Of a DNA stretch of 64,000 bases, positions 376 through 52,968 are shown in pieces. The stretch is from Cyanidioschyzon merolae (taxonomy: Eukaryota), in the NCBI GenBank assembly GCA_000091205.1, contig AP006488.2; one strand, written 5' to 3'. Position 1 is the stretch's first letter; each line of letters starts with the position of its first letter. A program made the position numbers and the translations under genes. The notes beneath the pieces were generated by a model that searched no databases, had not been told where the DNA came from, and worked only from the letters and a program-made list of their open reading frames with translations.

Positions 376-1128
376 TTATGTAAAGAGCATCGCGAAGGCA
401 CCACCATTGAATCGTGCAATACCCAGCAACCGCAACGGTACGCCATCGAGGGACGCGTTCGCGCTTGGTAATGGTACCAGGCCCACTGCGATGGTATCGT
501 TTGCAATCACGAATATATAGGATATCGCAGTAAAGACACGGTAGAAACGAGCACCCATTTGTTTGTGATGACAACAGGTATACGGCAGCTGCTGGAGCAC
601 TCGGAAGGTGCGGTAGAGCTCCATGGCAATCCAGCCATCGAGGAAAATGCGCATGGTAACCACGAGCGCAAACGTAAGCGAGTAGGCCACTTGTTGTTGG
701 TGTCCACGCATAGCAAACTGAACCAACATGCCCGGCCAGGTGAGTCCTAACGTCGTTCGAGACCAGCCGCAAATGGCTGTCTCCACGGCGGCGATGATCA
801 AACAGAGACCAAATACCACGCGGTTTCGTTCTAGAAACGTGTGGCGATCCTTCATATCACGATAGAGTCGTAGAATAGCCATGGCGTGTCCATAAAAACC
901 AAATATCCAGAACCATTGCCAGACCAGGTCGGAGACATAGAGAATGGCGATCGTGGTGCCGCTCGCTTCTCCGATATCGTTCGTGCAATTTTGCCTATCA
1001 TATTCATCGTAAAGAAAATAAATAGACCTTGTAGGAAGCAGCTGCGCATTTCGAAGGTGCGACGGATTCATCCATACCGATAGAGACGCAAAAAGTAGAC
1101 GATCGTGAAAGTAAGCTGGAGCACGCAA
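376..1128 (-). CDS. Hypothetical multi-pass membrane protein, possibly truncated or extended by the window edge. The ORF starts at a TTG; the first in-frame ATG is ~1071.
   Basis: The 250-aa ORF has several hydrophobic 20-25-aa segments (WFWIFGFYGHAMAIL, VVFGLCLIIAAVETAICGW, VAYSLTFALVVTMRIFLDGWIAM, FTAISYIFVIANDTIAVGLV). No family motif was recognised. Confidence 0.3.
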   Translation of the reverse strand: MRAPAYFHDRLLFASLSVWMNPSHLRNAQLLPTRSIYFLYDEYDRQNCTNDIGEASGTTIAILYVSDLVWQWFWIFGFYGHAMAILRLYRDMKDRHTFLERNRVVFGLCLIIAAVETAICGWSRTTLGLTWPGMLVQFAMRGHQQQVAYSLTFALVVTMRIFLDGWIAMELYRTFRVLQQLPYTCCHHKQMGARFYRVFTAISYIFVIANDTIAVGLVPLPSANASLDGVPLRLLGIARFNGGAFAMLFT

Positions 1129-1889
1129 AAGCAGTACACGACGACGCGGTCAACGAGGTTGCGTGCCGGGAGTGCCGCTTCGAAACGGCGTGCAAACAGA
1201 CTCATTGCTAGCGTGTAGGTGACGGAGAGCACGATTGCACTGCATAAGTTGAGAATTTGCCAAGTTACCTGCTTCGAGGATAGCGTCTCAAGGAGGAACT
1301 TGGCTTCCTTTGGATCGCTTCGATCTGTGGTGGAGCAAAGAAACCCGACAAACGACTGCGGTGACGTGCACTGCTTCGACGTGTGCGCGTGCCTCGTTCC
1401 TGTCCATTGATGAGTTCGCTGCTGCCTCTTAGCGTGCTGTCTCCAAATGTCTCCGACTCGAACGAGGAGACGGAGGTACCACGATCAGCCATGAGGGCAG
1501 CGTGCAAGCAGAATTAGAGTTGCATATTGTTCGGTACCCGTGCACTGCAGTGCAGAGTATACGGACCACGAAGCATGAATATGGCAAAGAAGGTTCGTTT
1601 TTATGTATGGAGCGGTGCGTATGCGCATACGCTCACACACGTTCACAAGCCCCAAGTCGGCTAGCTGAGGATTCCTGCACTGCACTGTACTGCACTGCCG
1701 TTCTTGGTCGTTCGAATTCTGTCCATCCAGAAACGCATCCCATGCGGACGCTCGAGACGCTCTCTGCTCACCAGCGCGACTCCATGAGGCTCCATTCCTG
1801 CTATGCATATTCGTATGCTATGTTGATGTGTATAGCAGAAGGTCGAGATGTAGAAGCAATGTGCTGTATAGATCGTAGACGAATAGAAT

Positions 1890-3200
1890 GTTAGATATAT
1901 ATTCTTTACTGAACAGTGCAAGGTGGACTGCATTCCTCGTTCAGGTACGGTTCACCACAGTATTCAGATGGACGAGGAACACTGAAATAAAGAAGCAAGT
2001 ACATGCGATCCGCACCGAAACCAGATATACTCATAGCGTGCTTGCGTTCACTGGTAGAAAAACGACCCGTTGATTACTTTAGGGAAGGGGAAAGCGACGA
2101 TGATACCCATCACCTCTATCTGTTTTTCTCGCCAGCTAATTCGTGTGATCCTGAATGCACTGGCATACAGTCGCGATAAAGTCCTGGTTCATGCACAGCC
2201 GTCTTGTATCGAATTCGCAACGACAGCGTTCCCGGAACGTCCCGATCGGCACGAGGCACAGAGACGTAGCTCTGTCTTTTTCAGACGATGCGACTTTCTT
2301 TGGCCGAAATGGTCGGGGCGTACATGGGTAGTCGCGGGGATGGAGCCAGCTGTATGTATGATCGAACTTGATGAGAGCGAGGACATCATCAACTGTTTGA
2401 GCTGCAGTGGATTCATTTGGCGGCCGCAGTTTCGCTCAGAGGGAAGGCTCGTAGAACAGCACACACTGTACCGAATCATGGAAGAAATTTCCCCTGACGT
2501 CTGACGACGTCGTCCGGTTGTACGGCTTGGTATTTCACCATTCCCCTTGCGTTCGAATGTTTGCTGATTCGATCGGGGAATAGAGCTGCTTTTCATTCCT
2601 CGATATAATCCGTGGTTGAGCCCCGTAGAAAGTGTTTTCTCTATTGTGAGACGTTTTTAATGCTCAACGGGGCGAGTCGCTGAAGCGTTCAGCACACATT
2701 GGTACCTGGCCACATTGCGTCCCTCGTCTGCAAGCCCTTTTTGCTCCGCTTAGCTCCTCATCTAACGGCATAAAGAAGCGCGCCATTTGAAGAAATAAGA
2801 AATCCAAGGGATGAGCTGCGGTGTACACTTCAGAACATCGAGATAGAGAGAAGGCAGCGGAGCGCTTCGCGCGATAGAAAAGTACGGAGAGCTGGCAGAG
2901 CAGCCAATGGTACTGAGTACTCGTGTTCTGGCAATCCTTGCATGGATGAGTTCAACAAGCGGCAATATATGCGAGGAGTTCGTGAAACGAGACTCCAACG
3001 TCACCTTCAGTATCTGACGATATGTAGTGCTGAAGAAGAGAACCGAGGAGCTGACGCGATACAGGTTTATGGGGCAGTCTCTCAGACTTGAAGTGCACAA
3101 GGAGAATCTGAGAACACGATACGAGTCTGCCGATCAAACAAGACTTGGAGGCGTCCTCGGATGGGTATTCATGCACCCCACATGATCGAGGAACTTTTTC
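1890..3200 (+). pseudogene. Degenerate Fanzor/TnpB-like element, copy A, a homolog of the copy at 50.5-51.7 kb. The RuvC-III motif has decayed to KRDSNVTF.
   Basis: Clear DNA and protein homology to the copy at 50530-51700. Both share the block '...FLWPKWSGRTWV...' / '...LFRTKWSGREWV...'. Both share a ~70-bp conserved DNA block (tttcccttgcgttcga...ggggaatagagctgc.tttcattcc at 2540-2610 vs 51160-51230). Both share the RuvC-III codons (agcggcaat.tatgc...ttc.tgaa.cg.gact..aac), here reading SGNICEEFVKRDSNVTF. Broken by stops and frameshifts. Confidence 0.45.
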
Positions 3201-4414
3201 GCTCCACTGATTATATAAGCACGACTGCAGTCTATGGGAGAAGTATCTTCATGCTTTGTCGTTCGAATCATCTGCTGAGATCGTGCGAGTGAGCGGAGCT
3301 TCCATGGGAAGACGCGCGATACTACAGAGACCCCGGTGAAACGTCTAACGCTCTCCCATACGTCAGCGCATGCAACGTCTGTGTACGCCCGAGCGGTGTC
3401 TAAAGGTCAACGCTCCACGCTCCGAAACGCTTCGCTTCGTCTGCAAAGCCTCATGGGATGACGGAAGCTCCCTGATCATGGAACGGAGGCCTGGCTCTCC
3501 TGTTTTCTTCCAGTATCCTGGATCGAGTCGTGAACCCGACTCGTTATTGCGCTAAGCACTCGTGGATACACCGTGCCAAAGCTGCCGCCAAGTTGGTTCA
3601 TGTATACTCAGGGAAACAAGTCGATCATGTTCAGTTATAAAGAATGTCCCGTTTTCGCATGACGATCTCGTATCCTCGACTTGGAAAAGCACACGGAGCA
3701 AGTGCGCTGTGCTGATGGCTCAAGGCAGCGCTGCAAGCTCGTGTTCCGCACCTTTTGTACAGCGCGACGCGCTTTCATTTTAAAGAACGTGAGCGGGGCT
3801 CCTGATTTGTCCACAGTCTCACCTACAATCATCACCGCTTATCTGCCGCTTCAGGATCTGGAACGATCGACCTGCGCTCATCCTGCACGAGCAATTGTTT
3901 GCATCGTCTCCTAGACGTGAAACGGTGTCGCGGGAGCGTGTTACCGCCTGACGCCTTTCGTTCCCAGAAAACAAATCCGCGACTCCTGGACTTGCTCCCG
4001 AGAGGCTGTCAAAAGTTAATGATCGACGCTCTGGACTCACTGAAGCCGCTCAGCGGGTGGTCAAAGCGTCAGCCGCACAAAGCGCTCCCAAGGCTATGGT
4101 GCCTCAAACAGCATCATTCCCTAGGTACGTGTTCGAGAGAGCCAGACTTGAACGCGAGTTCTACGTTATCCTAAGAAGACGCTGTGGTGTGTCACAGACT
4201 TCAACGGCGGCGGCAACTAGCAGGGCGCAGCGATATATGGTAGGTCCCTCAGCGTTTGAGTGAAACTCACTCATCCTGACATTGTCAGACAAGTGCTCAC
4301 CACTGGTGGCCAACGCTCACGTAAAGCACCGCTCTCTTCTGTACACTGCTGAAAGTTAGCGTCCCAGACGCAACAAACAGCCGCGCTACCAACGAGAACG
4401 CTACTGAGGCCGTC

Positions 4415-6802
4415 GTGCCCCAGGCGCGACACACCCCGCGTACACGAGTACAACAGAGCAATGAGCCAGTGTCGCTCGCTGCTGCTTCGTTCCTGAATCT
4501 GCCTCGAATGTGGCTGCAAGTTCGCGGTTTCCGAGAGGCTTCCTTCCGTCTGGGATATTCTCACAGCGCAAGCAGCTCCACTCTGTGGCCACCAGCCGAT
4601 TACCCCACGCTGAGGATCGCCTGGGACCTAGAGGCTTGGCTCCAGCAAGCGCTGGTTGCGGAGCCGCTGACGCCAGCGCTCGCTCTTCGCCCAGCAGACC
4701 GAGCTGCCTGGCAAGTCATCGACGACTGTGCTTTACTGAACGCTTACGGTTGGCTGTCACCGAGCTTCATAGAACGCGCGATCGCTGACCTGGAACGCTG
4801 GCTCTCAGCACTCGGGCGCGAAGTGCAAGAACCTCCGGGTACAGGACGTGGCCCGCACTTGCAGGTTGTACTCCTTGCACCGTCGTCTCACTATATTCAC
4901 TGGGGAGCACAACTACAGCACTTTCGAAAACAGGAGCATCAACAACGTCAAGCACTGGAAAAGGCATGGAACCTGCTAAAGATCGGAACCTCCACAGGAG
5001 ACCAGGCAGCGCTGCGAGCAGGCAAGCGACGTATGGCCGCTATCCAGCGCCTGGTCTATCCGCGCTCGGTTTGGTGGCAGTTACAGCAGGCCCTGTTGCA
5101 GCATGATTGGAAAGGGGCCCGACTTGACTTTTTGGACCCGGCCATAGACCTGGATGTGCCCGAGGTACCAACATGGCTGGTCGCTGCAGACCTCTACGCT
5201 GCAGGTCTGGTGGATGGGGTCTACGCTCCGCACCGAGAAGCGCTCGTTCTCGCCAATGCCCCTTGGGCGCTGCTTTTACTCCGAAACCGCCAAAAACTTC
5301 TCGAAAACGATCGATTTGTATCGTTGATCGACATTATAGCAGGCTGGCCCCTGGACTTTGGACGCTATGGTGCTTTAGCCTGTGCCATCAGTGGACTGGA
5401 TCCTTTCTGTCGACCACATTGGAGCATGGCAAGGAGTGGTGCGTCGTCCATGTCCTTTGAGGAGGCCATGGCACGAGCTCAGTCCATGTTGCTGAGCCAA
5501 CCTGATAACGATTCCACCGCACAGGCAAACGAGCATGTTGAAGATGAGCGTACCGCGCTGAAGTGTGTCACTTTCGTGATATCGGGGTCAGCGTCCATGT
5601 GGTCTCATACAGCACCCATGTCAGGCGAGCATCCCCGACGGCATGCTTTCGCTTTGGAAAGCGCTGCTCTGGAGTCGTCACCAGTGCCTGGCGAGAAAAC
5701 CGTCAGCGCGAACGTGCCAGGCACCGTCACCGCCGAGTCGTACGCGACGCTGACTCCAGGTCAAGCGCCGGACGTTGCACCCGAGGCATCCAGAGATGCA
5801 GCCGATACTTTTCCCACTCCAACGGCGGTGACGTCTTTCGGCGAGACATTGACCGGGACGCGTCTGAACGAGTCAACCCCGACTCGAGCTGGGTGCGAGC
5901 GCTGGACGGCGGACCCCGTTGTCACGCCAACAAGTGCCGGAGACGCATCCAACCAGGGCAAGCAACAGGCGACATCAAACAAACTGGGCGCAAGCTCACC
6001 CGTGACTACTCGGTCGTCCGTGGCAGAGACATCCCGCACGGACCCCGAACAGGAGGCACTGCGGTGGCATCAGCATATATGGCTCCCAGTGATCGATACA
6101 CCCTATCTCCGTCGCCTTTCTGAGCAGATACTCGGCTGGCGCAGGGCCAACGACACCCAAGGCAGCCTTAGTCTGTGGTTTCAACATCGTCGTTACACTT
6201 GGCAAGCGAGTCAGGGGCGTAGTTTGCGAGCAACGCTGTCGCAGTTGCCCCACTGGTTGCAGCGAGTTCTTGTCCGTGCTCGGTTGACGGATAAGGTGCC
6301 ACTTATCCAAGGACTGGAGAAACTCGTCCTCCCAAAAGCTGAGTCGAGCTCGGAAGTATCGACAGCGGTGCTGTTGTGGCCATGGGCGCTCTTATTGCTG
6401 TCACTTGCACTGGGCTGGTTTGCCACCGATGCGGATCACTGGCATGATCGAGTGGTTTGGTGGGTATCCCCAGATAGCGTTCTCGGGGGCGAAACGAACG
6501 CTTCGGCCTGGACCAATTACTTGGTGAAGAACTGGCCCCCGTTTCTCGCGGAGCAGATTGCAGCGAGTGAGATCATGAACTTGATCCTGGGTGTTGAGCT
6601 ACCCGGTCTGCATCTGGCATCCTGCCTGACCTTGGAAGTATACGCTCAACTTCGAGTCGCGTTCACAGAAAGCTACCGCAGTATTCGCTGCTATCTGGAC
6701 GAAGGCACGTGGCGAGCATTGGAGGCACTGCTGTCAGAAACGCTGAAGCCTGTGCAGAAACAAGCGCCTACTTCGGAGCATCACGCACAGCATGCGTTGT
6801 AA
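4415..6802 (+). CDS. Hypothetical 795-aa protein with a C-terminal hydrophobic segment. The ORF opens at GTG; the first ATG is 4508.
   Basis: A 2.4-kb uninterrupted ORF in GC-rich sequence. Possible transmembrane segment (LLWPWALLLLSLALGWF). No recognisable catalytic motif. Confidence 0.45.
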   Translation: MPQARHTPRTRVQQSNEPVSLAAASFLNLPRMWLQVRGFREASFRLGYSHSASSSTLWPPADYPTLRIAWDLEAWLQQALVAEPLTPALALRPADRAAWQVIDDCALLNAYGWLSPSFIERAIADLERWLSALGREVQEPPGTGRGPHLQVVLLAPSSHYIHWGAQLQHFRKQEHQQRQALEKAWNLLKIGTSTGDQAALRAGKRRMAAIQRLVYPRSVWWQLQQALLQHDWKGARLDFLDPAIDLDVPEVPTWLVAADLYAAGLVDGVYAPHREALVLANAPWALLLLRNRQKLLENDRFVSLIDIIAGWPLDFGRYGALACAISGLDPFCRPHWSMARSGASSMSFEEAMARAQSMLLSQPDNDSTAQANEHVEDERTALKCVTFVISGSASMWSHTAPMSGEHPRRHAFALESAALESSPVPGEKTVSANVPGTVTAESYATLTPGQAPDVAPEASRDAADTFPTPTAVTSFGETLTGTRLNESTPTRAGCERWTADPVVTPTSAGDASNQGKQQATSNKLGASSPVTTRSSVAETSRTDPEQEALRWHQHIWLPVIDTPYLRRLSEQILGWRRANDTQGSLSLWFQHRRYTWQASQGRSLRATLSQLPHWLQRVLVRARLTDKVPLIQGLEKLVLPKAESSSEVSTAVLLWPWALLLLSLALGWFATDADHWHDRVVWWVSPDSVLGGETNASAWTNYLVKNWPPFLAEQIAASEIMNLILGVELPGLHLASCLTLEVYAQLRVAFTESYRSIRCYLDEGTWRALEALLSETLKPVQKQAPTSEHHAQHAL

Positions 6803-6985
6803 ACCCGCCTGGTTTCTTTGGATTCAAAAATGCAACGTCAGCGGCTCGACGAGTCCCGAGTAACACGTCGATGAGGTTTCCATGCTCTGAAACCCCCGCC
6901 TGGTTTCTTTGGATTCAAAAATGCAACGTCAGCGGCTCGACGAGTCCCGAGTAACACGTCGATGAGGTTTCCATCCCGCAGAGAC
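6800..6985. repeat. 2 x ~90-bp tandem duplication immediately 3' of the stop codon of the 4415-6802 gene.
   Basis: The unit 'cccgcctggtttctttggattcaaaaatgcaacgtcagcggctcgacgagtcccgagtaacacgtcgatgaggtttccat' occurs twice head-to-tail (6804-6893 and 6895-6984) with 2-3 mismatches. Confidence 0.85.
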
Positions 6986-10675: not shown

Positions 10676-11899
10676 CTACAGCGCCCTGTTTGGCGGGAGG
10701 CGAGTTTCTCTGGACCTCTGCAGTGGAGCGAACCCGCAGGAGCCTTACGGCGTCTGGGGTAGGAAAGCCTTGACCTCGATCGGTGCTGATTGCAGATGCT
10801 GGTCGGAAACAAGCCTGTCCAAATTGAAAAAAGAACAGTGCAGATCGATCGACGGCGTCGAGGCCGACGGTTGTAGGAGAAACGTATCTTGGATCGTTTC
10901 CCAGCCGAATAGCATACAAAAGTGCTCTGTAGTTTTCGGACTTTTGTTACTTTTCCGGAGTTTCATCCAGGCTTGATAATTGAAATGCAGTTTCAAGGGC
11001 TTAAGGGTTCGTAGGTTGCTTTGGGATTCTCGGTCGTCTATTCGGAGTGGCTCGTTCTACACGACGTCGCTGCAACGAGTTCAAAGCAAGAAAGCAAGAT
11101 GATCTCCGACGTTCTGGAACAGGGGTTCGTAAAATAACCGAAATCTCTATACAAATCATATGCAAAAGTTATTCCAAGTTTCCGACTCGCTGTTTCAACG
11201 CAAGTCGTGTGCGCAGGGACACGCTGGCCGCTGAATTGCCGGGCAGAGAATCTCCACGTGGTCCTTTGAAGACTTGTTTTCCAAAACTCCTCCCTATTGT
11301 TCACTGAACTTGTCAAGATAAAAAATCGGTTCGTTTCGAAACACAATTTCTCTACGCCTCTTGGCTATCAGCGAAACGGCTTTCCACAGGCGCATCAAAC
11401 ATGTCGTGGGATATGCTTCCAGAGCCTGTCGTCTATTCTGTGTGCATGGAGAAGCATCTTGGACTCGGTGTTGAGTCATCGCAGTGATCGCTTACAGCAG
11501 AGATTGCGTCACCGCTTCGCATGAAGAAAACGTAGATGGACCGAAAATTCTCGACGTGATCTCTAGCCTGGATTTTCCTTTCGGTACTTGTTTTCTCGCC
11601 AACAACATCGCATCCAACAAAGCCCTGATCAAACGGGAAAACCTGAGCCTGTGCATACAGCGGACAGGCTGATCGCAGAGGAGATCGTCCAGAAGAGGTC
11701 CGTGCGCCAAGGGCACGGCATCGGGCGTGGAAACGCTGGAGGGCATCGAGGACAGCCTTCTCCGTCCGCCAAGCGCATGGACGATGCGATGAAGCAAATG
11801 CTTACGCAACACCGAACGAATACCCGAGGAGGAAGAGAAAATATTGGTATACGTTTGGGAGCACGTGAAGATGGCCAAGTGTGCCCTTTCCAAAGGCAC

Positions 11900-12060
11900 A
11901 CCGAGGCTGTATACAAACGAGATGAAAATCGCCAGCGAGGCGTACATCGCAACTTCCGCTTGTGCTGGGAAGGCGTCGACAACAGTTGGAAGCCGCGAAA
12001 TCGGGACTTGAACGCTACCATAAACACGCTTCGAGTGCTGATCATGGGTCTACGGGGAAC
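11900..12060 (+). other. Relic of a Fanzor/TnpB-like RuvC-III region, copy D. It reads '...NSWKPRNRDLNATINTLRV'.
   Basis: Translation of the + strand gives KPRNRDLNATINTL, about 70% DNA identity over the motif codons to copies at 51.6 kb (NRDFNAAIKN) and 25.9 kb (NRDFNAAINI). The surrounding frame is broken. Confidence 0.3.
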
Positions 12061-13441
12061 GCAGAGACTGGCGCATTGCAGTCGGCTACGAAAGAGAAAG
12101 AGTGGGAAAGCATGCTCAGACAAAATCGCAAAGGCTGGTATCGTCGTTGACATCGGGCGCCGAGCCAAATTCGGGTGCCTATACCCATTTTAGGAAACCT
12201 GTTCCATGTTGTTCTGGAATGAGCATAGGCCTGCGACGGGAGCTATGGCCCTCGAGCTGCTTCGAGAAAATCTACGCACAAGTTGTCGAGTCTCTACCCT
12301 GATCAGTGATGGAATATTCACTTCGGCAGGAGCCTGCCATGGTACCAGCACCCTTTTCGAGACATCAGCGAATCTCCGTTGCCCGAAATATTCGCGAGGG
12401 CATGCCGCATCGGGCTGCCGCACTCCGCCTCGATCATGCCGGTCACTGCGAGAAGCGTTCATATTGGATACCTAGGATACATGCGCCCTGCAATGCGCTT
12501 TGACGATCATCACTGACACCGCATTCACAGAGACTCTATGACACGTTGATCGCAAGCAGCGCGATCATAAAGTGTGTCAGTTTGCCGGTAGCTCGACAGT
12601 CGTGTTCGACAGACGCTGGCGAACGCGCTGTCGCGTGTACCACCAGTTCCACGCTGCCTCAGCGTTGAACAGACCAGGTGTGTCGCAGACATGAACCATT
12701 GTGCTCGCTCAAACAGACCGCAACCTGCTGGGCCGAAATCCAAACAAAGATTCGACCGCGTGAATGATACCGACGTCACAGGATGCATCCGGAAACTGTT
12801 CTGGATACGTGTAGCGTTCCCCGGGCAACGACATTTCAGCAGAATTCGTGACAGTACACGCACGCTCGCTCGCACGCACGCACGCATCGAGCACTACACG
12901 CTTTGAGAAAATCCTGAACATACCTGGATAAACCAGATGCTTTTTGCGACGCCTCCTCCCAGCGCGCAGCGATATCGTGTGCACCCCACAGACACCGCCG
13001 CGTCTCTTCTGGTGACCAGCAATGCTCCCAGCTCCACGGTACCCGAGGTAGATGCGTCCAGCACCGGGTACGACCCGAGCCCAGTACGCTGCTCCAGCGG
13101 AACCAGCGCCTCCGATCACCCACAGCGCTGGTACCGACGCGCTGGATTCGCGGGCACGCGACGCTGCGCACCGAACCGAAATGCCCTACTGCGTACCGCG
13201 CGATGAACGAACGCGAATCTGGGCCCCGCGACACGATTGAATTCGGGATTCCAGCTGGTACTCGCGACGCACCAGGTATGCTAGGAACACTAACGAACGA
13301 AAAGCGAAGCTAGACTTTCGGTTTGCTAACTCGGATTTCTTGTTGATTGAAACGGATTGAAAGCGGCTTTTAGTGTCTTGCTCATCGCGGAACGGGGGTC
13401 ATCTCGAACGAGCGTGGTAGGGTTCGTGTCTCTCCCCTGTT

Positions 13442-16400: not shown

Positions 16401-16516
16401 CAAGTCGCCGAGAACGAGAGGCCGTCCTTCGACGCCAGATAGAGAGTATGCAAGTGGCACTGGAAGAAGAGCGGCAACGAAGGCAGATCCTCGAAGAGCG
16501 GCTCCTCCGTCAGTAG
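13442..16516 (+). CDS. Hypothetical 1,020-aa low-complexity (Ala/Ser/Gly-rich) protein with a C-terminal coiled coil. The ORF opens at TTG; the first ATG is 13451.
   Basis: A 3.1-kb uninterrupted ORF. Long poly-Ala/Ser tracts from GCN/CAG repeats. The C-terminal ~60 aa are heptad-like and charged (REREAVLRRQIESMQVALEEERQRRQILEERLLRQ). Confidence 0.45.
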   Translation: MPRMRVSRGPAAYHSPASTNASPLRYGSVQGSLGHQGSLFMERSRSAAVVVAPTGMVYCPRAPRWIMKAVRAIGVAGWGGSGGGRSWTLSGARGPLETAQESGEEQLSEENPEGSERPAERDNGAGSAGSLTAHDVVVSMGGGSLGATVLGNESFIWTLSGWRQSVREAQEREDARQLRSAFDREEMVSGYETPATGTSLLSTSIERRGGAALGSALSLTTRSPWAIIGALASWLEDRFFPLFGAEEAENIMAAAEGEMPRAARTVASSASSITGSMIDEETAANRRLQAALLRQSGSTRDRRVDALQYVLDQMIDPFCRAVLASFAAAATDSAASILGPLLFLYGHAYHMQRGEMQLGSEGDQVLMEEDLANMPRAIMALRTLTELYSELFSTSNAGFGRSRGNSSSTLNQAGTPQHAALISTNASSANIAVVPSSRSRLGRTLSTQSGNKASAQGSLSDAGEVLDAFATRAELLAGTTEAMDPPLASSLTTEPAVGRARSPADAAAAIASSSATLPLTGAYGRESEPADSAATSSDTDAALSEAVKSLRHAPATETERPELRAAAGASAAAAAVGAPDVATMPQAAAAAAAAVSQCAFSENDRTALLEAALARIEALEREVDFLNRELAAFRDDCVSSNRDLHNCVDAWTAIVLSETRSVAATERATIRALARRLRKLERQIFSENVAATAATSPEHSNRGESRRATRASSERAEVQAEGYGTASRSAAQPWPATATATEATETLEFVAGKQGPPTASPSAQDSRLLYSEISSDDPTEAPSRAMQPGSGAARGAPTVTVRSPSAGPVAALSYLLSEHGSFGSDEDPLLTAFQRAVGLGNALGSGDDTGESASSTPRGGTPRSGGLHGPGAGSLQAPAQQSTYPSVRGAQRAIIGSLPRSTSGSNMVRISSPMLSDPMSGSGALSSSLPVTSSLRTRVAPTVSIATGGLPENPHTSRRILRDGKWVHEEAASSPGAAWGRASASRASRREREAVLRRQIESMQVALEEERQRRQILEERLLRQ

Positions 16517-17065
16517 CATGCGGTACGGTGATCATGCGTGCATACGAATATCCTAGTTCAATTTTGTCTGCATTTATGTAGCCTTGCACCAATGCCCCGA
16601 ATACGTAGCATGCGGTACGGTGATCATGCGTGCATACGAATATCCTAGTTCAAGTTCGTCTGCATTTATGTAGCCTTGCACCAATGCCCCGAATACACAG
16701 CATGCGGTACGGTGATCATGCGTGCATACGAATATCCTAGTTCAATTTTGTCTGCATTTATGTAGCCTTGCACCAATGCCCCGAATACACAGCATGCGGT
16801 ACGGTGATCATGCGTGCATACGAATATCCTAGTTCAATTTTGTCTGCATTTCTAAAGCCTTGCACCAATGCCCCGAATACGTAGCATGCGGTACGGTGAT
16901 CATGCGTGCATACAAATATCCTAGTTCAATTTTGTCTGCATTTATGTAGCCTTGCACCAATGCCCCAAATACACAGCATGCGGTACGGTGATCATGCGTG
17001 CATACGAATATCCTAGTTCAATTTTGTCTGCATTTATGTAGCCTTGCACCAATGCCCCGAGGGCA
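16517..17065. repeat. Minisatellite of ~6 tandem copies of a 90-bp unit, starting at the stop codon of the 13442-16516 gene.
   Basis: The unit 'gcatgcggtacggtgatcatgcgtgcatacgaatatcctagttcaattttgtctgcatttatgtagccttgcaccaatgccccgaatac(g/a)(t/c)a' repeats with period 90 at 16515, 16605, 16695, 16785, 16875, 16965 with few substitutions. Confidence 0.9.
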
Positions 17066-20108: not shown

Positions 20109-22674
20109 ACTTGATTTTTCAACCGCTCTTACGGAGCGTACGATACGAAGTGACGGTGCTCGATAGCCTGCAGCACACGAGCGACGTTAACGTTCGAGAG
20201 CGCAGCGGCTTCATCGCCGCCGTCGTCGACGCCGTCGTCAACGTCGTCGCCAGTTTGCGCTGCTGCATCCGGCGTGTTCGCTCCATAAGATTATCGTCCA
20301 GCGCCCGTGTCATTCGACGGTGGAGCGCTCGGGGCGGGCTGGTGGCGGCTCGCCCTTGAGCAGGTACAGAAATGGGTAAAAAGTTATCTGCTTGTCCCTG
20401 GCGATCTCCTTGCAGGAATCTCTTTTGTACTACCATGTACGTAAATATACAGTTTAGTTCAGTGCCGGTCCGTGGCGACGCGCATGCAGCGCCTGGGGCG
20501 GCACCCGCGCGCGCCTATCGAAGCGCGGGGCACCATTGATTGTTCAGCAGGTGCCCGACTCAAGTCCTTCCTGCTATCTTCATGCGGAGCTAGTGCATTT
20601 CTAGTTCGCTGTAACGCAGCGTATTCGTGCGTGGATTCGGGCGAGAATTTGAATAACGCTCTCCTGGCCACTTATTTTTTATTCGATACCTGGAGCGTTT
20701 CAGCAGAGTGCCCACACTGCATGCGGTGCAGTACCCTCGAAGGTTCGCTCGATACGAAGCCGCTGGATGCTCCAGAAACACAACACTTTTTCCGGATGCT
20801 GGGCGAGACCTTCAATTCTTGGTGCGCAAAGTGCTTGCGCGATTATGGCTCGTAGACTCATGCCATGGTAAGTCGCTTACTGTTCAATGCCTTGCCATCT
20901 GAGGTCCGGTCAGCTTCGCGTGAGGAATCTTTTGCATGCGGCGCTGTTTGGCGGTCTTCTTCTTTACCATTTTGAATCGTGGGACTGTGCTCGTGATTCG
21001 TATATGTCGTCCTGAACGCGTCAATGAGCATCGTACAGAATCAAGTCCTGCACTTGTTGTACGCTTTCGTCGAAGGACCAGGAGCGCAGGGGCCTTTGCT
21101 TGCTCGTCACCGCATCCATCGCGAGCACGCCTACGGGCCGATGCGCGTCTTCCCGTTTCGTCCTGTGCACGATCATAGAAGCAGCGCGGGCGTCCAAGGT
21201 CGGTGAAGGTAGAGAGCGACCTGTCCGAGTATGGTATCAAGAGGCGGACGAATCATCTATAGATCGATGAATGTGAAAATGGCGTTTCGTGTCCATAAAG
21301 ATTTATAGGACTGTGTTGAACAAGCGCTAATAGGCTGGCATGAAGAGCAGCTGAACGCCAATCTAAGCTGCATACTCCTCGACCGATTGGAGTGATGGAA
21401 ACCGACATTGCCCGAGACCCGGACAGGAGAATGTTCGCAAGATAAACATGAAACGCTCTTCGACGAAGGATGACGTGTTCGTCGATGTCATCCGTATGAT
21501 GATTTGGAGGCGAACAGACGATTGCATCGAGGCTAGGGTTCATGTTGTCGTCATGGGAGCATGACCCTTCTTTACGAACAGCGGTTTGAACCCCCATCCC
21601 TGCTTACCCATATACTGGTCTAAAGATTCTCCCTAATAACGTCTCATCGAATGGATCAAACACCCTTCGCTTCTGTAAAAAGCGTTCGCGTTTCGGTACC
21701 TACTCGATCATGTCTACTCCAACGCGCGCAAGCGTCCCAATGAAGCGTACGTTTCCCCTTGTCTGTGCGGGTCCGTCCGTGCCCGTTCGTATCCAAGGCA
21801 CGGAAACTTGACATCCTCTGGCTTTTTTGGTGATATTTTTTGCAGAACGTTTGGAGTGGAATGTATTGACAAGGAGACGATCGTGTTGGTATGGCAGAAT
21901 ATGTTCTGTTTTGAGTACACGACGTTCAGAATGAGAACGATGAGAAGGGTGCTTTATCAAACCCGCTAACCGAAGAATGGCGAACGTCTACAATAATGGC
22001 CGTCTTCCGCAGGCAACGAGTGACACGACCAAGTCTCTTCGCGACGTTTCTCCGATCTTCTGGAACCATTCATATAGTTGAATACTCCCAGAAACACGAA
22101 TGAACATGGGAAGTGGCGTGCCGGTACAGGTGTACCAACATGCACTGTTCTGAATGTCAAGCTTCTCGACCACTGACACCTCCGATGCATACGTTCTGAT
22201 AGGGCATCGGTGGCCGTCAGTGTTCGTCGCCCATATTCTCGAAATCCACTGCCAAGCACCAGAACAACAACATCGCCAACAGGACGTTTCTCGATACCAA
22301 GTATTGTCAAGCGTGCATCCATGGACCGCGTAACGCGTGCAGGCCGCTCCTGAGACGACTCACAGTTCGTACAAGCGCACTCCTGACGCCATCGGAGGTA
22401 CTCAAGGAGACGACCTCGTCACAAGTTAAACTTATAGGACCCGAAAATCTGCGTCAGGGTGTATGACGCTCCGCTGGAACCCGAAGAAGCGTTCTTAAGG
22501 AACGCGCAACGCAAGCCACTCCCGGAAGTCATGCGAGCACTTGACAGACCCAGACTAGGCGGCACGTCGCGCCACCAGCGGTATCGCAACATGAATGCCC
22601 AAGCAGCGTGCGTCAACTTATCCCTGAACAACCAGCCAAAAACGACATTCGGTTGCCTCGGCTTGCAAACATCT

Positions 22675-25611: not shown

Positions 25612-25873
25612 AGACTAGACAAGACTTAAAGAACCTCCTGCAAAGAGCGGAATCACAGACTCGAGAACCGGAACAGAGTACCAAACAGCTGTGAAGGAAC
25701 AACCCAGGAGTGTCCACGGAAACGCCTTTATAAGGACGTGGAGCACACACCACCACCGCCGTTCTAAGTCGAACGACGTCGGGCGTGTACAGTAGTGGCG
25801 AGAAACCCGCCTTGGACAAGAAATCTTCCACTGCGGTGTAGACGCCTTCCAGCCCTTTGAGAACGGCCACCCA

Positions 25874-26314
25874 CTACTGCTTCCAAATTTCTATCATATA
25901 GTTAAACATGAAGAGGTGTCCAATGAAGTTCTCTCTTGTCGACTCTGGAGGTCTTTTCTCCAGCACCGCACATCTCCTTATATTGATTGCGGCATTAAAG
26001 TCTCGGTTCACAAACTCCATACGTTTCTTGCAATTGATTGTACTTCCTAATGCAAGTAGCCCTCGAACTTTCGCCCTCCTTTCCATTTGCTCGTCTGTCA
26101 GCGGTCCGTACTTTGCGATTTCCTCAGGGCTCCGTTGGCACTTTTCCATCTCGACCCTATGAAGTATACAGTCCAGTCCATGGTGTATATACGATGTTCG
26201 AAACTCATCTACAGGTATTGTAACAAAACGCCTTGCCCACTCCTTGTACGTTCTTGTCGTTGGAGCTGGCGTAGTCCATTTTTTGGGTCTTCTAGCGCCC
26301 TGCTCCGTACGCTT
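25874..26314 (-). CDS. Fanzor-like nuclease, C-terminal segment. It carries a TS motif, a Cys/His cluster and the RuvC-III catalytic motif.
   Basis: The open frame reads ...TIPVDEFRTSYIHHGLDCILHRVEMEKCQRSPEEIAKYGPLTDEQMERRAKVRGLLALGSTINCKKRMEFVNRDFNAAINIRRC.... The '(N/D)RDxNAAxNI' element is the hallmark RuvC-III of TnpB/Fanzor/Cas12. The frame is offset from the middle segment by a ~90-100-nt putative intron (gtttgc...tag). Confidence 0.6.
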   Translation of the reverse strand, partial: KRTEQGARRPKKWTTPAPTTRTYKEWARRFVTIPVDEFRTSYIHHGLDCILHRVEMEKCQRSPEEIAKYGPLTDEQMERRAKVRGLLALGSTINCKKRMEFVNRDFNAAINIRRCAVLEKRPPESTRENFIGHLFMFNYMIEIWKQ

Positions 26315-26401
26315 CTACTAGCCTCTGATTTTCATCCTCCTTCAGGGCACTCAACTGATTGAAAAAATTCGCGAACGCCCGCTGCTTCCCACAATACAAA
26401 T

Positions 26402-27187
26402 TCATTCGCAAACGAGCCCACGGGGGTTGGTATACTTCTCCCACAGCGCATCCCAATGCGCCATGCGAACTTTCATGAACTCCCGAAAAGCTTCAAAGTC
26501 CGCCCCTCGGCTCGTCACCTCGCTCAAAGCTTCCAGGTGATCCTTCGTTCCTGAATTCCATGTAACGATTTTCTTCCTCGCATTCATGGTGCCCGATTCC
26601 CGATTGTATCTCGCTCTCGAGAACCTCAAAAGACGCATGTCTTTCTGACGTAAGTTACCATCAGTCCCATCTTCCGCACACTTTGGTACAGAGATGGTTA
26701 TGATATTTGTATTCCCAGGGTCCGCGGCAACGACAAAGTCGTTATCTTCCACTTTCTGGGTCGCAGGATCCGCCTCCTTCTTTTCTTCATCCTTCGCCGC
26801 GTCAAAGACAAAGTCGTTATCCTGCACTTTCTGGGTCGCAGGACCAGCCTCCTCCTCATCTTCATTCTTCGCCGCGTCAAACATAAAGTCGTTATCCTCC
26901 ACCTCCTGCGTCGCAGGACCAGCCTCCTCTTTGTTTTCTTCATGCATCGCCGTGCCAACGACAAGGTCGTTATCTCGCACCTCCTGCGTCGCAGGACCCG
27001 CCTTCTTCTCATCTTCATGGTTCGCCGAAGGCGGAACTGGCCGATCTTTCTTCAACCGCCGATAGTGTATACATAAGGCCACTCCATCGGTTTCGATCAC
27101 CCCCGTGAATACCTTTTGTTTGCTCACGTTGAGACGTTTGAAATCGAAGATACTCCTCCAGTACGTCTCCCGTTTTTCACCGGAGAA
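26402..27187 (-). CDS. Fanzor-like nuclease, middle segment. It carries a 24-aa x4 acidic tandem repeat and then a RuvC-I-like motif.
   Basis: '...[21 protein letters not shown]...' resembles the D-P-G RuvC-I motif of Fanzor (I/V-D-P-G). It is preceded by four copies of 'EEAGPATQ(E/K)V(E/Q)DNDF(M/V)FDAAK(N/D)E(D/E)'. Confidence 0.55.
26715..27010. repeat. In-frame 72-bp (24-codon) tandem repeat x4 inside the Fanzor-like coding region.
   Basis: The DNA unit '...aaagtcgttatcctgcactttctgggtcgcaggaccagcctcctcctcatcttcattcttcgccgcgtcaaagaca...' repeats 4 times. Antisense ORFs 26694-27065 (+) and 26698-27018 (-) are by-products. Confidence 0.8.
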
Positions 27188-27437
27188 TTACTCCCTGCTG
27201 ACATCGAACTCGGGACTGATCTCCCTCATGATGCCATGAAGGACTGCGGAGTCGGTAGTCACAAAATGTGACTTGATCTTGCACACTGGAACCACGTCGA
27301 AGCGCTTACCCATTCGGAAAGCCTTCCGTCTCTCCTACTCTTCATTTGTCTCTTCACTCAGCTTCATCTCTGCCTTGCGTTCGAACTCTCGCTCCAAAAA
27401 CACAAAATAGCGCACGATGAGGCGATAGTATCTTTCC

Positions 27438-28334
27438 TTACCTTTTTTTCAACACTGATATCTTTTCTGTTGGATTCGCCAGCCCCAGTACCGCACGGTG
27501 CTCTTGTATAACCGCGCGGATGACGGAGTCCTCATTTGTGCTCCTGCGTGACGTCTTCTTGTCGACGAATTCGACCTCACCTTCATGCTTGCGATCTTTC
27601 GTGATGCCATTGATAATCGCAAATTTTCCATTGCGAGACAGACCCGGGTAGAGTGCAAACACGGCGCGTATCATGAAACGTTCGAGGTTCGTTGTCAAAC
27701 GGTTCTTCAGGTTCGTAATGTACTTCATTGCCCCGTATGTGTAAATATCCTGGTCACCCTTGTATCGAGTACCATTGAAGCTGTAAAAGGGATGTTTTCC
27801 GTGGAGGGCATGCACCCGCTCATTTTCCATCCGCGCTTCCTTTGTACCAAGCATCAGCTGACGAATAAACTTCTTATCGAAAAACTCGTCTGGAATCTCG
27901 ACCGTTTCCATGTGCGTCACGTCGCGATACATCTCTCTCACCAAATGCATCAGTCCTGACGACGCCTTGACGATACTCTTGGAGTATGACGCAACACGTT
28001 TTTCGATAGCGTCTCGCAACTTTTCCCTGTAGGGATCCTTGATATGTCCAAGAAGAAAGGTTTTCACCACCATCTCGTTGTACAGCCGTCTTTCTTGCCG
28101 CCTTCGACGTAGGGCCTCTCCCTTTAGGTCCTTCTTCGCTTCCTTGTCTTCTGGACTCGGCACAGTTTTCGTTTTTTTCTGGTAGTCGGCGACCCTCGGC
28201 CTCCAGGATCGTCGACTTGCTTTTTCATAACTTTCCTTTTTTAGTTTTTTTTTGAAAAAGAAAGCTCCTGGAACGCTTCTGTTATATACTGCGAAAAAAC
28301 AATTGAATACACATGTTTGAGGTTTGAGACTCAA
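27438..28334 (-). CDS. Fanzor-like nuclease, N-terminal segment (298 aa). It ends at an AG|GTAAGG splice donor.
   Basis: Uninterrupted basic/charged N-terminal region. The ORF's TAA stop lies inside 'aaaaaaaGGTAAGG' (+strand ccttacc at 27436-27442), a consensus 5' splice donor. Confidence 0.55.
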   Translation of the reverse strand: MSLKPQTCVFNCFFAVYNRSVPGAFFFKKKLKKESYEKASRRSWRPRVADYQKKTKTVPSPEDKEAKKDLKGEALRRRRQERRLYNEMVVKTFLLGHIKDPYREKLRDAIEKRVASYSKSIVKASSGLMHLVREMYRDVTHMETVEIPDEFFDKKFIRQLMLGTKEARMENERVHALHGKHPFYSFNGTRYKGDQDIYTYGAMKYITNLKNRLTTNLERFMIRAVFALYPGLSRNGKFAIINGITKDRKHEGEVEFVDKKTSRRSTNEDSVIRAVIQEHRAVLGLANPTEKISVLKKR

Positions 28335-28711
28335 ATGAACTGAAAACTATACTTGGCTATGAAGTTAACGAAAATACAACTTTTACATTAGAGCTACATG
28401 CTAGATATCAAGATCACGTTTTCCTTCGACGGCGGCATTTTTTTCATAAACAAAACGTTTCCTTTGGCCAGCGTTCTCCGACTATGCGCGTTTCTCTTTT
28501 CTTACTTTTTTGTGTTTTCCAATGTGCGGTGAAGTATCCATCAAACAGCCTACTTCCAAGTTCCATTACCTATACTTCTTCTAGGATATTCTGGTCGTTT
28601 CATACGTCCTATCGGGTGTGCCTCGTACCTGCCTTTCTGTATTCGCCTTTGCACCTTAAATGCTGGAGCAGATACCTCATAGAGACAGAACGGCGTTGCC
28701 GTACCACAGAG

Positions 28712-28830
28712 GGCGTCGGCTCAAGGCGTGGTTCACCCGACGTAGAATCGGGTGTCGTTGTCTGTTTGTGCTCGGACAGTCTGCGGATGCAGGCCTGTCT
28801 TCGCTGTACGACACGCTGGAGACACTTGGC
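28712..28830. repeat. Dispersed repeat, copy 1 of a pair with 33806-33925. About 75% identical and in the same orientation.
   Basis: 'gtgctcggacagtctgcggatgcaggcctgtcttcgctgtacgacacg' aligns to 'gtgctcgcccagtctgcgtatgcagacctgccttcgcggcacgacggg' and the flanking ~60 bp. Both copies translate on the minus strand to similar peptides (RRQACIRRLSEH.../RRQVCIRRLGEH...). Confidence 0.6.
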
Positions 28831-31480: not shown

Positions 31481-31511
31481 TCATGATGGGCTCGTTTGGG
31501 AGTTCTTCTTT

Positions 31512-50062: not shown

Positions 50063-50529
50063 AGAGCGACTTTCAGTGGCTGTTTTCCGGTGGACCTGCT
50101 TTGACAGGTTGAGAAAGGTGCAGCGGCTGTCTCAGATCGCTTCGCCGAGAACACCGAGCGCCGTCGCAAGCAAGCCCAAAGGCCGGCGTGCAACGGCCTC
50201 GAAACGCCTCCGCTACAAAGCTCGTTTTGTTCCAGTGCACACTGGACGCGTCGAATTCCACTGATCTGAGGGCGCGATCACCGCCACAGTCGATGTGGCA
50301 AGCGTCCTTGGCTAGACCGCGGTCGCGCCTGCGTTCCTGCAGAGAAGCACCCCAGAATGGGGATGATGTGCGCAGGTGTTTGCGCGCGCACTTTTGCCGC
50401 GCGCGATTTCGATTTTATCGCCTTCAACGCTTATCTGCTTCACTCTGCTGCGGTGTAGAGCCGGAGATCGACGTCACGGTAGAATGTACCCTATAGACCG
50501 TAGACGGACTGCTTGTGGGATATATATTG

Positions 50530-51700
50530 TTTAATGGTCAGTACAAGAAGGACTGCATTCTCTCTTCAGCATGGTCACACCACAGTACTCAGATGGGTAC
50601 GGAAGACTGCGGGAAAAAGAGTATGCGCTTGGCCCCATAAACCGATATTATGAAAGACTGGCTGCGGTCAATGGTCGAAATCGACCCGTTAATGACCTTA
50701 CGGAATGCAAAACGAGGTGGTGGCCGACATGTACGTTTCTGTTTCTCAACAGATTGTTCATGTTGTCTTGAAAACATATGAATACAATCGCGAAAGGAGC
50801 GTCAGATTTCACCCGAGGTCATCTACCGACATCGAAACGACAGCGTTCCTGGAACAAAGGGATCAATATGGAGCACAGGGACGTCGATTTGTTTTTCTCA
50901 GACGATGGGACTTGTTTCGGACGAAATGGTCAGGGCGCGAATGGGTACTCGCGGAGCAGGGAGCCCGTTGTATGTACAATCGAACTAGAAGGTAGCTAAG
51001 GCATCATCATCTGTTCTAGATACAGTTGGTTCACGTAGCGGCCGCAGTATCGTTCGTACAGGAGGCTCATCCAACAGCATCAACGACTTTGTCGAAGTAC
51101 TCGAACTTCTTTCCTTGACGTCCAGAAACGCACTGCTTTGGATGCCGTGGCATCTCATCGTTTCCCTTGCGTTCGAGCTTTTGCCGATTCTATCGGGGTA
51201 GAGCTGCGTTTCATTCCTTCGTACGCTTTGTGGTCCAATCGCATAAAAAGGAGTGTTGCCTGTCGTGAAACGTAGTGATCGCTCCACTGGACGAATCGCT
51301 GAAGCGTTCATCACACGGGGACATATTAAGGCACATTTCGTGTTCCTTGAGCCAGTCCTGCTCGCTCCGGGAACGTCCTCACCACAACCTATAAAAAACT
51401 GCGTTCGTTTTCAAAGAATTAAGGTAGAGCCACGATGCATAATTCAGAAGTTCGACATGGAGAGAAGGCAGCGGAACGCTTCGGCGATAGCAGAGGACGC
51501 AGAGCTGACACAGCACCAAATGGTTCAGAGGGCGCGAGTTCTACGACACTTTGCACTGGTGAGTACAAACAGCGGCAATAAATGCATGGACTTCATGAAC
51601 CGCGACTTTAACGCTGCTATCAAGAACAGACGATTTGATAAGATGAAGACGAGACCCGTGGAGCAGACGCGAGCCAACCTTGTAGGGCAGCCTCTCAGTC
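50530..51700 (+). pseudogene. Degenerate Fanzor/TnpB-like element, copy B. It retains RuvC-III 'NRDFNAAIKNRR' but the zinc-finger Cys have changed to Arg.
   Basis: '...PRCIIQKFDMERRQRNASAIAEDAELTQHQMVQRARVLRHFALVSTNSGNKCMDFMNRDFNAAIKNRRF' aligns residue by residue with copy C 'LDCILHRVEMEKCQRSPEEIAKYGPLTDEQMERRAKVRGLLALGSTINCKKRMEFVNRDFNAAINIRRC'. The upstream part is homologous to copy A at DNA level. Interrupted by stops. Confidence 0.5.
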
Positions 51701-52149
51701 TCGTAGTGTGCATGCAGATACTGAAACCGATAGCAGGCGGCCAGTCGACAAGCGCCCGGAGGAGGCGCCCGCGGATGGGCATCCATTTACCCTGCACGGT
51801 CGTGAACGTATTTTTGTTTCACTCAGGATTGCAAGGTGGAAGATCGAGGCATCGAACTGGAAATCCCGAACGTGTGACTGCTGCTGCTATACCCGGCCAC
51901 ATCGAGCGATGGAAACACCAGAATCGTTCACTGCTTGTCCGGCAGAATCGTTCGCAGTGTGTAAATTCGAGGATCTGCGTCTGTGCTGGACTGTTGAACC
52001 GTACCATACCAGTGCCATGATCCAGGCGAGTATCCAAATGGACTCCCTCACGGTTACTGAAGTTAACCTTATCGAAAATCTCCAGCGCTTCCGAGCAATG
52101 CCCCTACTGGGTACCAAACGAGTGCTTGGAAACGTTGTTCGATAAACAG

Positions 52150-52320
52150 ATGCTACAAGTTCCAGAAGCGCGAAATGCTTCCGGATGTTGATCGAGGCGT
52201 TCAGGGCGCGGTGTGCAAAGTGTGGCGCGCATCGGGTCCTGGTCGACTCGTACCGTGGCAAGTCTGTCACCTTCGATTGCTTTGCCGTTCGGCGTTCGGT
52301 CAGCTTGCCGTTCACCACCT
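52150..52320 (-). other. Second RuvC-III-like relic, copy E ('CAPHFAHRALNASINIRK'), on the opposite strand just 3' of copy B.
   Basis: The minus-strand translation at ~52178-52216 gives the NAxINIR(K/R) core; the catalytic Asp is replaced. Low-confidence remnant. Confidence 0.25.
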
Positions 52321-52968
52321 CGTGCGACAGTCTCTGGCTCAGCTGCTTCTTCTGTATCTAATTCAGGGTGCATCTGAGCTCGGTATGTGTGAATAAAGTA
52401 CAGGACGCGTGAAAGAAAACCGGTTTGAATCGATTCCTGCATCCGTGACTCATGATCACCATTCGTATCAACCGTACAGAAGCTTTCCATCTTGTGGCTA
52501 CTTTGATAGTCTTTTTTGGGAACGTATGGAGTAGTATGGATTGACGGAGAGTCAATCGCACAGAACGAGTTTTGCCACCTTCTGCTTTGGGTGCACGACA
52601 TTCAGAATACGGAGCACGAGAACTGCGCTTTATCTAATGATTGAACGCAGAGTGACTGGCGGGCAGAAATCAAGCCGGTTTGCGCAACCTAGCAGTGATA
52701 GCATGCAGACGTTCTGCTCGACATTCCTGCAATCTACAGCATACATTCCTTTTCTTGCATACCTGCAAGAAAAACAAACAGGGCGAGCTGATATAGGTAT
52801 TCCAGAATTCATTACCCTGAGTATCGCAACGGACCTAGAGGCGCGGGCACCCACTTCCGGGCCAAGCCATCTTTCGATGACGCCGCTCTGTGGTATGCGC
52901 AACATTCGCCGCAAACGAACATGAAATGCACACCGCTCCGTCGATATCGTACCCGAGGGCATGTACTC

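Follow-up and report, generated by a model that had tools for sequence, protein, structure and literature searches.

Two probable IS630/Tc1-type transposons with an internally deleted Fanzor1 gene in a 64-kb window of the Cyanidioschyzon merolae genome

A stretch of 64,000 nucleotides (nt) from the red alga Cyanidioschyzon merolae 10D (contig AP006488.2 of assembly GCA_000091205.1), called the window in the following, is gene-dense eukaryotic DNA and contains several decayed repeats related to genes of Fanzor proteins, which in characterised relatives are RNA-guided nucleases. An earlier note made from the sequence alone had described two of these repeats, here called copy A and copy B, as Fanzor genes worn down by progressive decay. 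Our analysis suggests, with a probability of about 0.8, that A and B are independent dead insertions of a class II family of ~1.45 kb, i.e., of a composite element of transposase and Fanzor1 that was internally deleted, amplified and finally decayed. Both copies show the same layout on one strand, in which a DD34E transposase gene is followed by ~25 nt of a Fanzor leader, by the last ~350 nt of a Fanzor1 gene and by a hairpin-prone 3′-end. The progenitor would have been a cut-and-paste composite in which a full-length Fanzor1 gene lay downstream of a transposase gene, and an internal deletion would then have taken out Fanzor codons ~1–610. The deleted derivative would have kept its encoded transposase and both ends and would have amplified in one old burst, before the copies decayed neutrally to ~81–86% of their consensus. 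In this history the element would have been moved by the DDE transposase, and the Fanzor protein would have been dispensable for movement.

The mutual homology of A and B over more than 1 kb of DNA, which the earlier note had reported, is borne out by blastn, which aligns 1858–3178 with 50483–51792 at 68.5% identity over 1341 nt (E = 3e-117), and a comparison of the window with itself returns four collinear repeat families shared by A and B at a constant offset of ~48,617 nt. A nucleotide profile of 26 paralogues, from which A and B were excluded, matches A at 1777–3221 and B at 50369–51830 (nhmmer, E = 0 for both), and the 3′-end of A, ‘…CACTGA’, was read off alignments. Since 48.6 kb separate A from B on one chromosome and both have the same orientation, one might think of a segmental duplication in which B was copied from A, or the reverse, without transposition. 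The probability of this is close to negligible: the homology ends at the element boundaries, the flanks are unrelated, and A is no nearer to B than to copies elsewhere. Paralogues at unrelated loci (L004, L006, L008, and L009) are 67–70% identical to A over 1.3–1.4 kb, and the same holds for B, so that A and B are independent insertions rather than products of a local duplication. Other assemblies contain almost identical orthologues of both loci (P0079 and P0078). A tblastx comparison of A and B gives equal similarity in all six frames, and their likeness therefore exists at the level of DNA, without coding constraint.

Judged by its sequence, the first ~1 kb of both copies once encoded a DD34E transposase of the IS630/Tc1 type and has since decayed. 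Three motifs in this part, FSDDATFFGRNG, LLFIPRYNPWLSPVESVFS, and FIPSYALWSNRIK, pointed to a DDE transposase. The gene is split over three reading frames with several stops in A, and Pfam searches with the raw open reading frames (ORFs) of the two copies, or with one frame at a time, returned almost nothing; informative results came only from frames that had been stitched together and from consensus sequences of the family. Frame-stitched A matches DDE_3 with 30.6 bits (E = 3.6e-7; cut-off 28.6) and frame-stitched B with 18.6 bits, which is under the cut-off. Used as a database query, the stitched pair retrieved P0072 and P0074, independent relatives that carry DDE_3. The family consensus transposase scores 65.2 bits against DDE_3 (PF13358; E = 7.6e-18) and 103.7 bits against the NCBIfam model of IS630 (NF033545; cut-off 100), and it shows weak N-terminal matches to the helix-turn-helix models HTH_Tnp_Tc3_2 and HTH_33. 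Amino acids (aa) 1–232 of the DDE family consensus are covered in A by tblastn. The DD34E spacing was read in the family consensus and in an intact homologue on the contig L088 described below. Within the catalytic triad A has lost the second D and retains the E (LSPVESVF), whereas in B it is the E that is missing. At 48404–48535, within a tubulin-chaperone-D-like gene, the transposase family has three weak matches (E = 0.006–0.26), which were judged to be due to chance.

The Fanzor-derived part of A and B comprises only the final ~350 nt, the last sixth of the gene, corresponding to positions 2737–3081 of the consensus of CMe-1A, a known C. merolae repeat family of which copy C in the window is a member, and to codons ~611–727. 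A and B match this consensus at 68–72% over these positions only (blastn, 69% for the tail of A). With the CMe-1 consensus protein, tblastn finds aa 615–725 in B (E = 3e-21) and aa 598–711 in A (E = 1.2e-14); a Fanzor hidden Markov model (HMM) matches A at 2937–3077, and the Fanzor profile has no match in A or B upstream of profile position ~554. The RuvC-III motif ‘RD..NA’ was found in both tails where the earlier note had placed it, as NRDFNAAIKN in B and in the degraded form KRDSNVTF in A (2985–3008, plus strand). The claim that both copies align at the protein level with an intact copy C holds for their 3′-ends (97 aa, E = 1.9e-15 for B; 68 aa, E = 1.8e-7 for A), but copy C itself is not intact. 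A Fanzor1 gene carries the RuvC-I D, the RuvC-II E and the RuvC-III D along its protein, and A and B contain only aa ~598/611–727; likewise, identity of ~80% to the 3169-bp CMe-1A consensus over the element is seen in copy C alone and neither in A nor in B.

These data bear on the interpretation of A and B as full-length Fanzor paralogues that CpG-type point mutation has reduced to their C-terminal motifs. The tails do align with Fanzor, and the copies lie ~19% from their consensus, so that a loss of upstream signal is conceivable. We nevertheless regard this interpretation as extremely unlikely, as the upstream 1 kb is identified as DDE_3/IS630, as no Fanzor-profile match precedes position ~554, and as copy C, which is of similar age, is recognisable over its whole length. 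The Fanzor likeness proposed for more than 1 kb is thus limited to ~350 nt beside ~1 kb of transposase, and the missing part, read before as progressive decay, is a clean internal deletion common to many paralogues. Cysteines were moreover said to have become arginines by TGC to CGC changes. The sole Cys-to-Arg codon in A and B is AGG (AGC in the family consensus), and the other Cys codon is TTT in B and TAT in A. Across 28 copies, CpG transitions amount to 0.111 per site compared with 0.095 for other C/G transitions (1.16-fold). Because there is no CpG excess and the cited codon is AGG from AGC, CpG-driven decay is unsupported.

A scan of metagenomes, for which a single consensus of the DDE transposase served as query, returned 78 loci, which represent 26 distinct paralogues, or 28 counting A and B. 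In ~70 of the 78 loci a truncated CMe-1-like Fanzor sequence lies 50–300 nt downstream of the transposase and in the same orientation. Copies of type 1, including A and B, retain Fanzor aa ~607–733, and copies of type 2 retain aa 1–55 together with ~640–733; the two types are independent internal deletions. At the junction between transposase and Fanzor tail the family consensus contains ~25 nt that match the CMe-1A leader at 869–894 (score 30 compared with 13.2 ± 2.2 for shuffled sequences, z = 7.7). The type 2 copy L004 retains the leader and the first codons (positions 869–976, E = 4.8e-12), after which its match resumes at position 2849, in the consensus of the 28 copies leader, ATG and N-terminal codons are plainly visible, and the family profile matches the leader of copy C (nhmmer, E = 1e-6). 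A junction inside the RuvC-II region, considered on account of a protein likeness (‘APG..KNC’ and ‘SAPFEEIRNP’), was rejected because the same DNA test yields z = −1.0 for this internal site. The consensus of the A/B family is 76% identical to that of CMe-1A over 2737–3084, in addition to the leader from 869; the homology of the tail stops near position 3084 and the final ~100 nt differ between the two families. Since the part from the leader to near 3084 is common to both and the last ~100 nt differ, one Fanzor gene module, which starts 37 nt before the ATG and extends almost to the stop codon, resides in two different vehicles.

The junction also speaks to the idea of nested insertions, according to which an IS630-like transposon landed independently inside a pre-existing Fanzor copy at each locus, so that transposase and Fanzor tail would be adjacent by chance or through target preference and would not form one element. 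The genome is indeed rich in Fanzor repeats (PMC1955436), and the window holds islands of transposable elements, such as the retrotransposon beside copy C and copy D beside B. However, one and the same junction is common to many paralogues at unrelated loci, neither A nor B nor any of the other 26 paralogues has a Fanzor 5′-part ahead of its transposase, and in L088 two intact genes lie on one strand only 23 nt apart, which renders nested insertions very unlikely.

The identity to the consensus ranges from 80.6 to 85.9% for all 28 copies (81.0% for A and 81.7% for B), and this star-like pattern is the reason to assume one old burst; it also indicates that the A/B-family burst is similar in age to CMe-1A. 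From the equal likeness of A and B in six frames, the lack of CpG excess and the lack of covariation in the 3′-hairpins we infer that the copies decayed neutrally, and it is likely that nothing in the window is functional today. An ORF of 255 aa at 51253–52020 (plus strand), which joins the C-terminus of the transposase in B, the Fanzor tail and sequence past the end of B, is called as a protein in 18 near-identical assemblies and is likely mis-annotated as a hypothetical gene. It could be taken for a domesticated or chimeric host gene, i.e., a fusion of transposase and Fanzor tail under selection: it stays open for 255 codons, belongs to an 18-member cluster at 90% identity, and has transposase C-terminus and tail in one frame also in a six-copy consensus. 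The cluster members are near-identical orthologues, and the open frame is therefore no evidence of constraint. Moreover, A and the other paralogues are full of stops in this stretch, the ORF lacks catalytic parts save for the RuvC-III motif and runs past the end of the element, and A and B are equally similar in all frames, so that there is scarcely any probability left for domestication.

A composite of the kind assumed as progenitor exists in intact form in L088, a metagenome contig of the European Nucleotide Archive (ENA), in which an intact DDE_3 protein of 308 aa (45% identical to the consensus, E = 3e-56) is followed after 23 nt, on the same strand, by an intact Fanzor1 homologue of 646 aa. 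The latter matches P0001, an intact protein related to copy C, with E = 7e-47 and 4e-31 and contains the motifs MDPGRS, IDEFRTT, and DRDLNAALNI. The contig L089 resembles L088 in being a composite of transposase and Fanzor1, and decayed long forms with DDE followed by Fanzor are found in L020 (Fanzor aa 172–643), L039 (aa 274–699), and L066 (aa 422–681). A phmmer search of the two L088 proteins against the sequences of the Protein Data Bank (PDB) gave no matches, and solved Fanzor structures were reached only by the family profile.

Several observations weigh against the proposed history of A and B. In C. merolae-like contigs no full-length copy of the A/B subtype with transposase and Fanzor was found, and the intact example L088 is only 45% and ~30–38% identical. 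The remnant of the leader consists of only 25 A-rich nt and the protein there is vaguely RuvC-II-like, so that the exact left breakpoint is uncertain. The candidate ends TA|nAGTCTTTCAAC… and …GTTTCACTGACTn|TA are short, imperfect and read by eye; of 11 copies inspected, 7 have TA at their 3′-flank. In L088 an inverted-repeat search returned many chance repeats equal in length to the candidate terminal inverted repeat seen there by eye, which is absent from the top 25. Moreover, the first DDE consensus included A and B, while the search that led to P0072/P0074 and the nhmmer profile do not depend on it. Finally, we only infer that the transposase of the deleted derivative acted on its own element and that mobilisation did not come from elsewhere in trans.

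Each copy ends with ~60–110 nt of hairpin-prone sequence. The guide (omega) RNA of characterised TnpB/Fanzor systems is encoded jointly by the 3′-end of the gene and the right end of the element, and any cut-and-paste derivative is expected to keep the ends of the element. This leads to the idea that the elements may be passengers that contribute an omega RNA only, whose 3′-end is kept for function and whose RNA is loaded in trans by the Fanzor protein of CMe-1A. The ancestral 3′-terminal 104 nt fold better than 200 of 200 shuffled sequences (z = −3.8), and the 3′-end is kept in all four deletion types (4/4), both of which are compatible with this idea. RNAalifold returned no consensus structure for the 3′-ends, pair counts in the hairpins predicted from the consensus show no excess over shuffled sequences and no covariation among the copies, and the window yielded no match to Rfam and no tRNA. 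As the hairpins show no covariation and retained ends are expected in any case, we consider omega-RNA-only passengers very improbable; if they did exist, a DDE transposon would have gained RNA-guided homing or retention without encoding a nuclease.

The CMe-1A family was described with ~150 copies of ~80% identity to a consensus of 3169 bp, some of them intact, without transposase, terminal inverted repeats or target-site duplications, and was left unclassified (Bao and Jurka, 2013; PMC3627910). It is evidently the WSV486-like interspersed repeat of 3.2 kb reported with 253 copies and ~5% of the genome (Nozaki et al., 2007; PMC1955436). That a Fanzor-like family has proliferated and decayed here, as the earlier note had stated, is thus correct, and the proliferation itself was already published (PMC3627910; PMC1955436). 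From the published counts ~0.6–1 copy of CMe-1A would fall in a stretch of 64 kb; the window contains one, copy C. Because of three frame changes and two in-frame stops in its three-frame translation, copy C is a pseudogene; an intact gene with introns was ruled out by the same defects and by the nearly intronless genome, introns being present in 0.5% of C. merolae genes (PMC1955436). Copy C retains the RuvC motifs DPGNTN, VDEFRTS, and NRDFNAAINI, and P0001, an intact relative with 752 aa, shares 72% identity with it. A CMe-1 family profile of 13 members matches the solved Fanzor1 structures 9cf0 (E = 4.5e-22), 8gkh (E = 2.1e-19), and 9cer (E = 1.6e-5), and intact CMe-1 proteins do not have a canonical C4 zinc finger.

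Further observations concern the surroundings of copy C. Just upstream of RuvC-I lies a tandem repeat of 75 nt (25 aa, acidic) at 26722–27024 (minus strand), a minisatellite within the ORF whose unit number varies: copy C and P0001 have four units each, the CMe-1 consensus has one, and P0017 has a higher number. A retrotransposon without long terminal repeats adjoins the 5′-boundary of copy C (28438–32441, minus strand, and 33571–34044, plus strand; Exo_endo_phos 36 bits, RVT_1 E = 7e-5). Its 3′-terminal ~0.5 kb match positions 60–534 of the CMe-1A consensus, the part named ‘TE-N2_CMe’, and in L002 (4401–5668) the same 1.27-kb retrotransposon segment stands beside the Fanzor unit in opposite orientation. 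On account of this match and of the reversed orientation in L002, the 5′-terminal 635 bp of the CMe-1A consensus may be the 3′-end of a long interspersed nuclear element (LINE) and not part of the Fanzor unit. The island of Fanzor and LINE at 26001–32000 has an AT skew of −0.17 to −0.28 and a G+C content of 0.50–0.53, and G+C is also reduced at the other insertion sites (0–4, 20–22, and 50–54 kb). The coordinates of all features are compiled in Table 1.

Table 1. Coordinates in the 64,000-nt window of the elements discussed, of their parts and of one host gene.
Feature	Position	Strand	Evidence and remarks
Copy A, whole element; probable IS630-like transposase with deleted Fanzor, type 1	1777..3212	+	5′-end uncertain by ~20 nt
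Copy A, decayed predicted DDE transposase gene (DD34E; Pfam DDE_3, IS630-type)	2003..2760	+	Stitched frames against DDE_3
Copy A, putative leader remnant (CMe-1A consensus ~869–894), left side of internal deletion	2776..2810	+	DNA alignment
Copy A, Fanzor1 tail (CMe-1 codons ~611–727; degenerate zinc-finger linker and RuvC-III KRDSNVTF)	2811..3155	+	blastn, tblastn, HMM
Relic of R12, decayed copy of a second TnpB/Fanzor-like family (12.0 kb)	11177..12081	+	blastn copies, Pfam on consensus
Copy E, very decayed divergent sister element	20610..22100	−	HMM, tblastn, blastn, nhmmer
Copy E, transposase, aa ~27–219	21849..21279	−	tblastn with DDE consensus, E = 1e-3
Copy E, Fanzor codons ~558–700, RuvC-III region HFAHQELKVSPSIRKK	21153..~20790	−	tblastn with CMe-1, E = 5e-7
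Copy C, CMe-1A element (consensus 703–3137), pseudogene	25785..28434	−	blastn, 84–87% to consensus
GH47 ORF, 661 aa, identical to BAM79428.1 / XP_005535714.1	42979–44964	−	
Copy B, whole element, same type as A	50414..51823	+	nhmmer, tblastn, blastn
Copy B, transposase	~50623–51372	+	tblastn with DDE consensus, E = 6e-34
Copy B, Fanzor tail, with NRDFNAAIKN at 51598–51627	51427–51762	+	blastn to CMe-1A 2739–3077
Copy D (52.2-kb relic)	51995..52824	−	blastn to E; tblastn with CMe-1

Besides A and B the earlier note had listed two relics, which were likewise found at the positions given, NRDLNATINTL at 11999–12031 (plus strand) and HRALNASINIRK at 52213–52178 (minus strand). All four pieces are real, but the window holds six that are Fanzor-derived, more than were listed. 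Copy E had been overlooked. It yields an HMM match at 21082..20951 (independent E = 4e-5), a blastn match to CMe-1A 2579–2742 (E = 1e-5) and an nhmmer match of its DDE core (E = 9.5e-5), and it resembles the long forms in L039, L020, and L073. The 52.2-kb relic, copy D, is confirmed by tblastn with CMe-1 (aa 592–697, E = 2.6e-5). It aligns with E in two collinear blastn blocks (E = 1e-26 and 1.4e-27), which comprise the 5′-block and the Fanzor tail block; as the middle 730 nt of E (21783..21052) are missing from D, it is a deletion derivative of an E-like element. B on the plus strand and D on the minus strand stand tail to tail, ~170 nt apart (51823–51995).

The relic at 12.0 kb is also real, but it is a member of a second, different TnpB/Fanzor-like family, which we name R12. 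This repeat of 0.9 kb is 65–74% identical to at least six independent loci, and its consensus contains CxxC…CxxC and NRDLNAAINI and matches PF07282 with 28.1 bits (cut-off 26.3); the Fanzor profile matches several R12 copies. With CMe-1 alone the relic is invisible, the comparison with copy C giving E = 6.3 and tblastn no match at E ≤ 1, and PDB matches of the R12 consensus were dismissed as WD40-like noise. R12, which has a canonical C4 zinc ribbon, occurs in many Cyanidioschyzon-like contigs. Only one Fanzor family was listed for C. merolae by Bao and Jurka (PMC3627910).

Elsewhere in the window, a tandem repeat of 92 nt with ~8 units that are 96–97% identical in the core (16423–17152) lies directly 3′ of an ORF of 1024 aa (13442–16516), which has no Pfam match. 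A tandem duplication of 142 nt (98% identical, 35288–35571) overlaps the start of a DUF3110 ORF, and a perfect direct repeat of 80 nt with a spacing of 91 nt (6804–6974) is located just past an ORF of 795 aa (4415–6802).

Compared with known systems, the tails of A and B derive from the same gene lineage as CMe-1A, to which copy C belongs, but no relationship to CMe-1A exists in the 5′-kilobase, which holds the transposase, or in the last ~100 nt. To the IS630 and Tc1/mariner transposons the family is linked by its consensus, which scores above both curated cut-offs, and by its DD34E triad, whereas the copies in the window are all pseudogenes. Internal-deletion derivatives of cut-and-paste transposons are familiar, e.g., Ds from Ac. 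As in these, the ends are kept, internal coding sequence is lost and several independent deletion types exist (type 1, type 2, E, and D), but here the deletions spare the transposase and remove the Fanzor passenger. The characterised Fanzor1 proteins of Spizellomyces punctatus (8gkh), Parasitella parasitica (9cf0), and Guillardia theta (9cer) are matched by the CMe-1 profile, with the RuvC residues D, E, and D present in intact CMe-1 members; they differ in that CMe-1 is without the canonical C4 zinc finger and that A and B contain only the RuvC-III end. The closest arrangement is that of the Tc1/mariner elements PUl-1, PUl-2, and PGv-1, in which a transposase and then Fanzor1 are encoded on one strand of one element (Bao and Jurka, 2013). 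It is found here intact in L088/L089 and decayed in L020/L039/L066, with candidate TA-flanked ends. In PUl-1 from Pythium 43 residues separate the second D from the E, as counted from the supplement sequence, in contrast to DD34E here, and the form amplified in the red alga is without ~85% of the Fanzor gene while its transposase gene is retained. For the genome no more than eight ‘class II’ elements were reported, with bacterial transposases as their nearest relatives (Nozaki et al., 2007; PMC1955436); the A/B-type elements may correspond to these.

Both the proliferation of Fanzor1 in C. merolae and Tc1/mariner elements that carry Fanzor1 are already known, so that the family refines the description of known repeats, is no new kind of system and leaves the current understanding of Fanzor biology unchanged. 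It does correct the annotation of a model red alga genome that has been described as almost transposon-free, in that part of the apparent ‘Fanzor decay’ is a separate family of the IS630/Tc1 type with dozens of copies. Furthermore, the unclassified C. merolae Fanzor lineage gains a carrier, a DD34E element of which an intact version occurs in one environmental genome or more, and L088 and P0001 provide intact proteins suitable for testing. Finally, amplification appears more than once not to have required the nuclease, whereas neither the transposase gene nor the 3′-end was given up.

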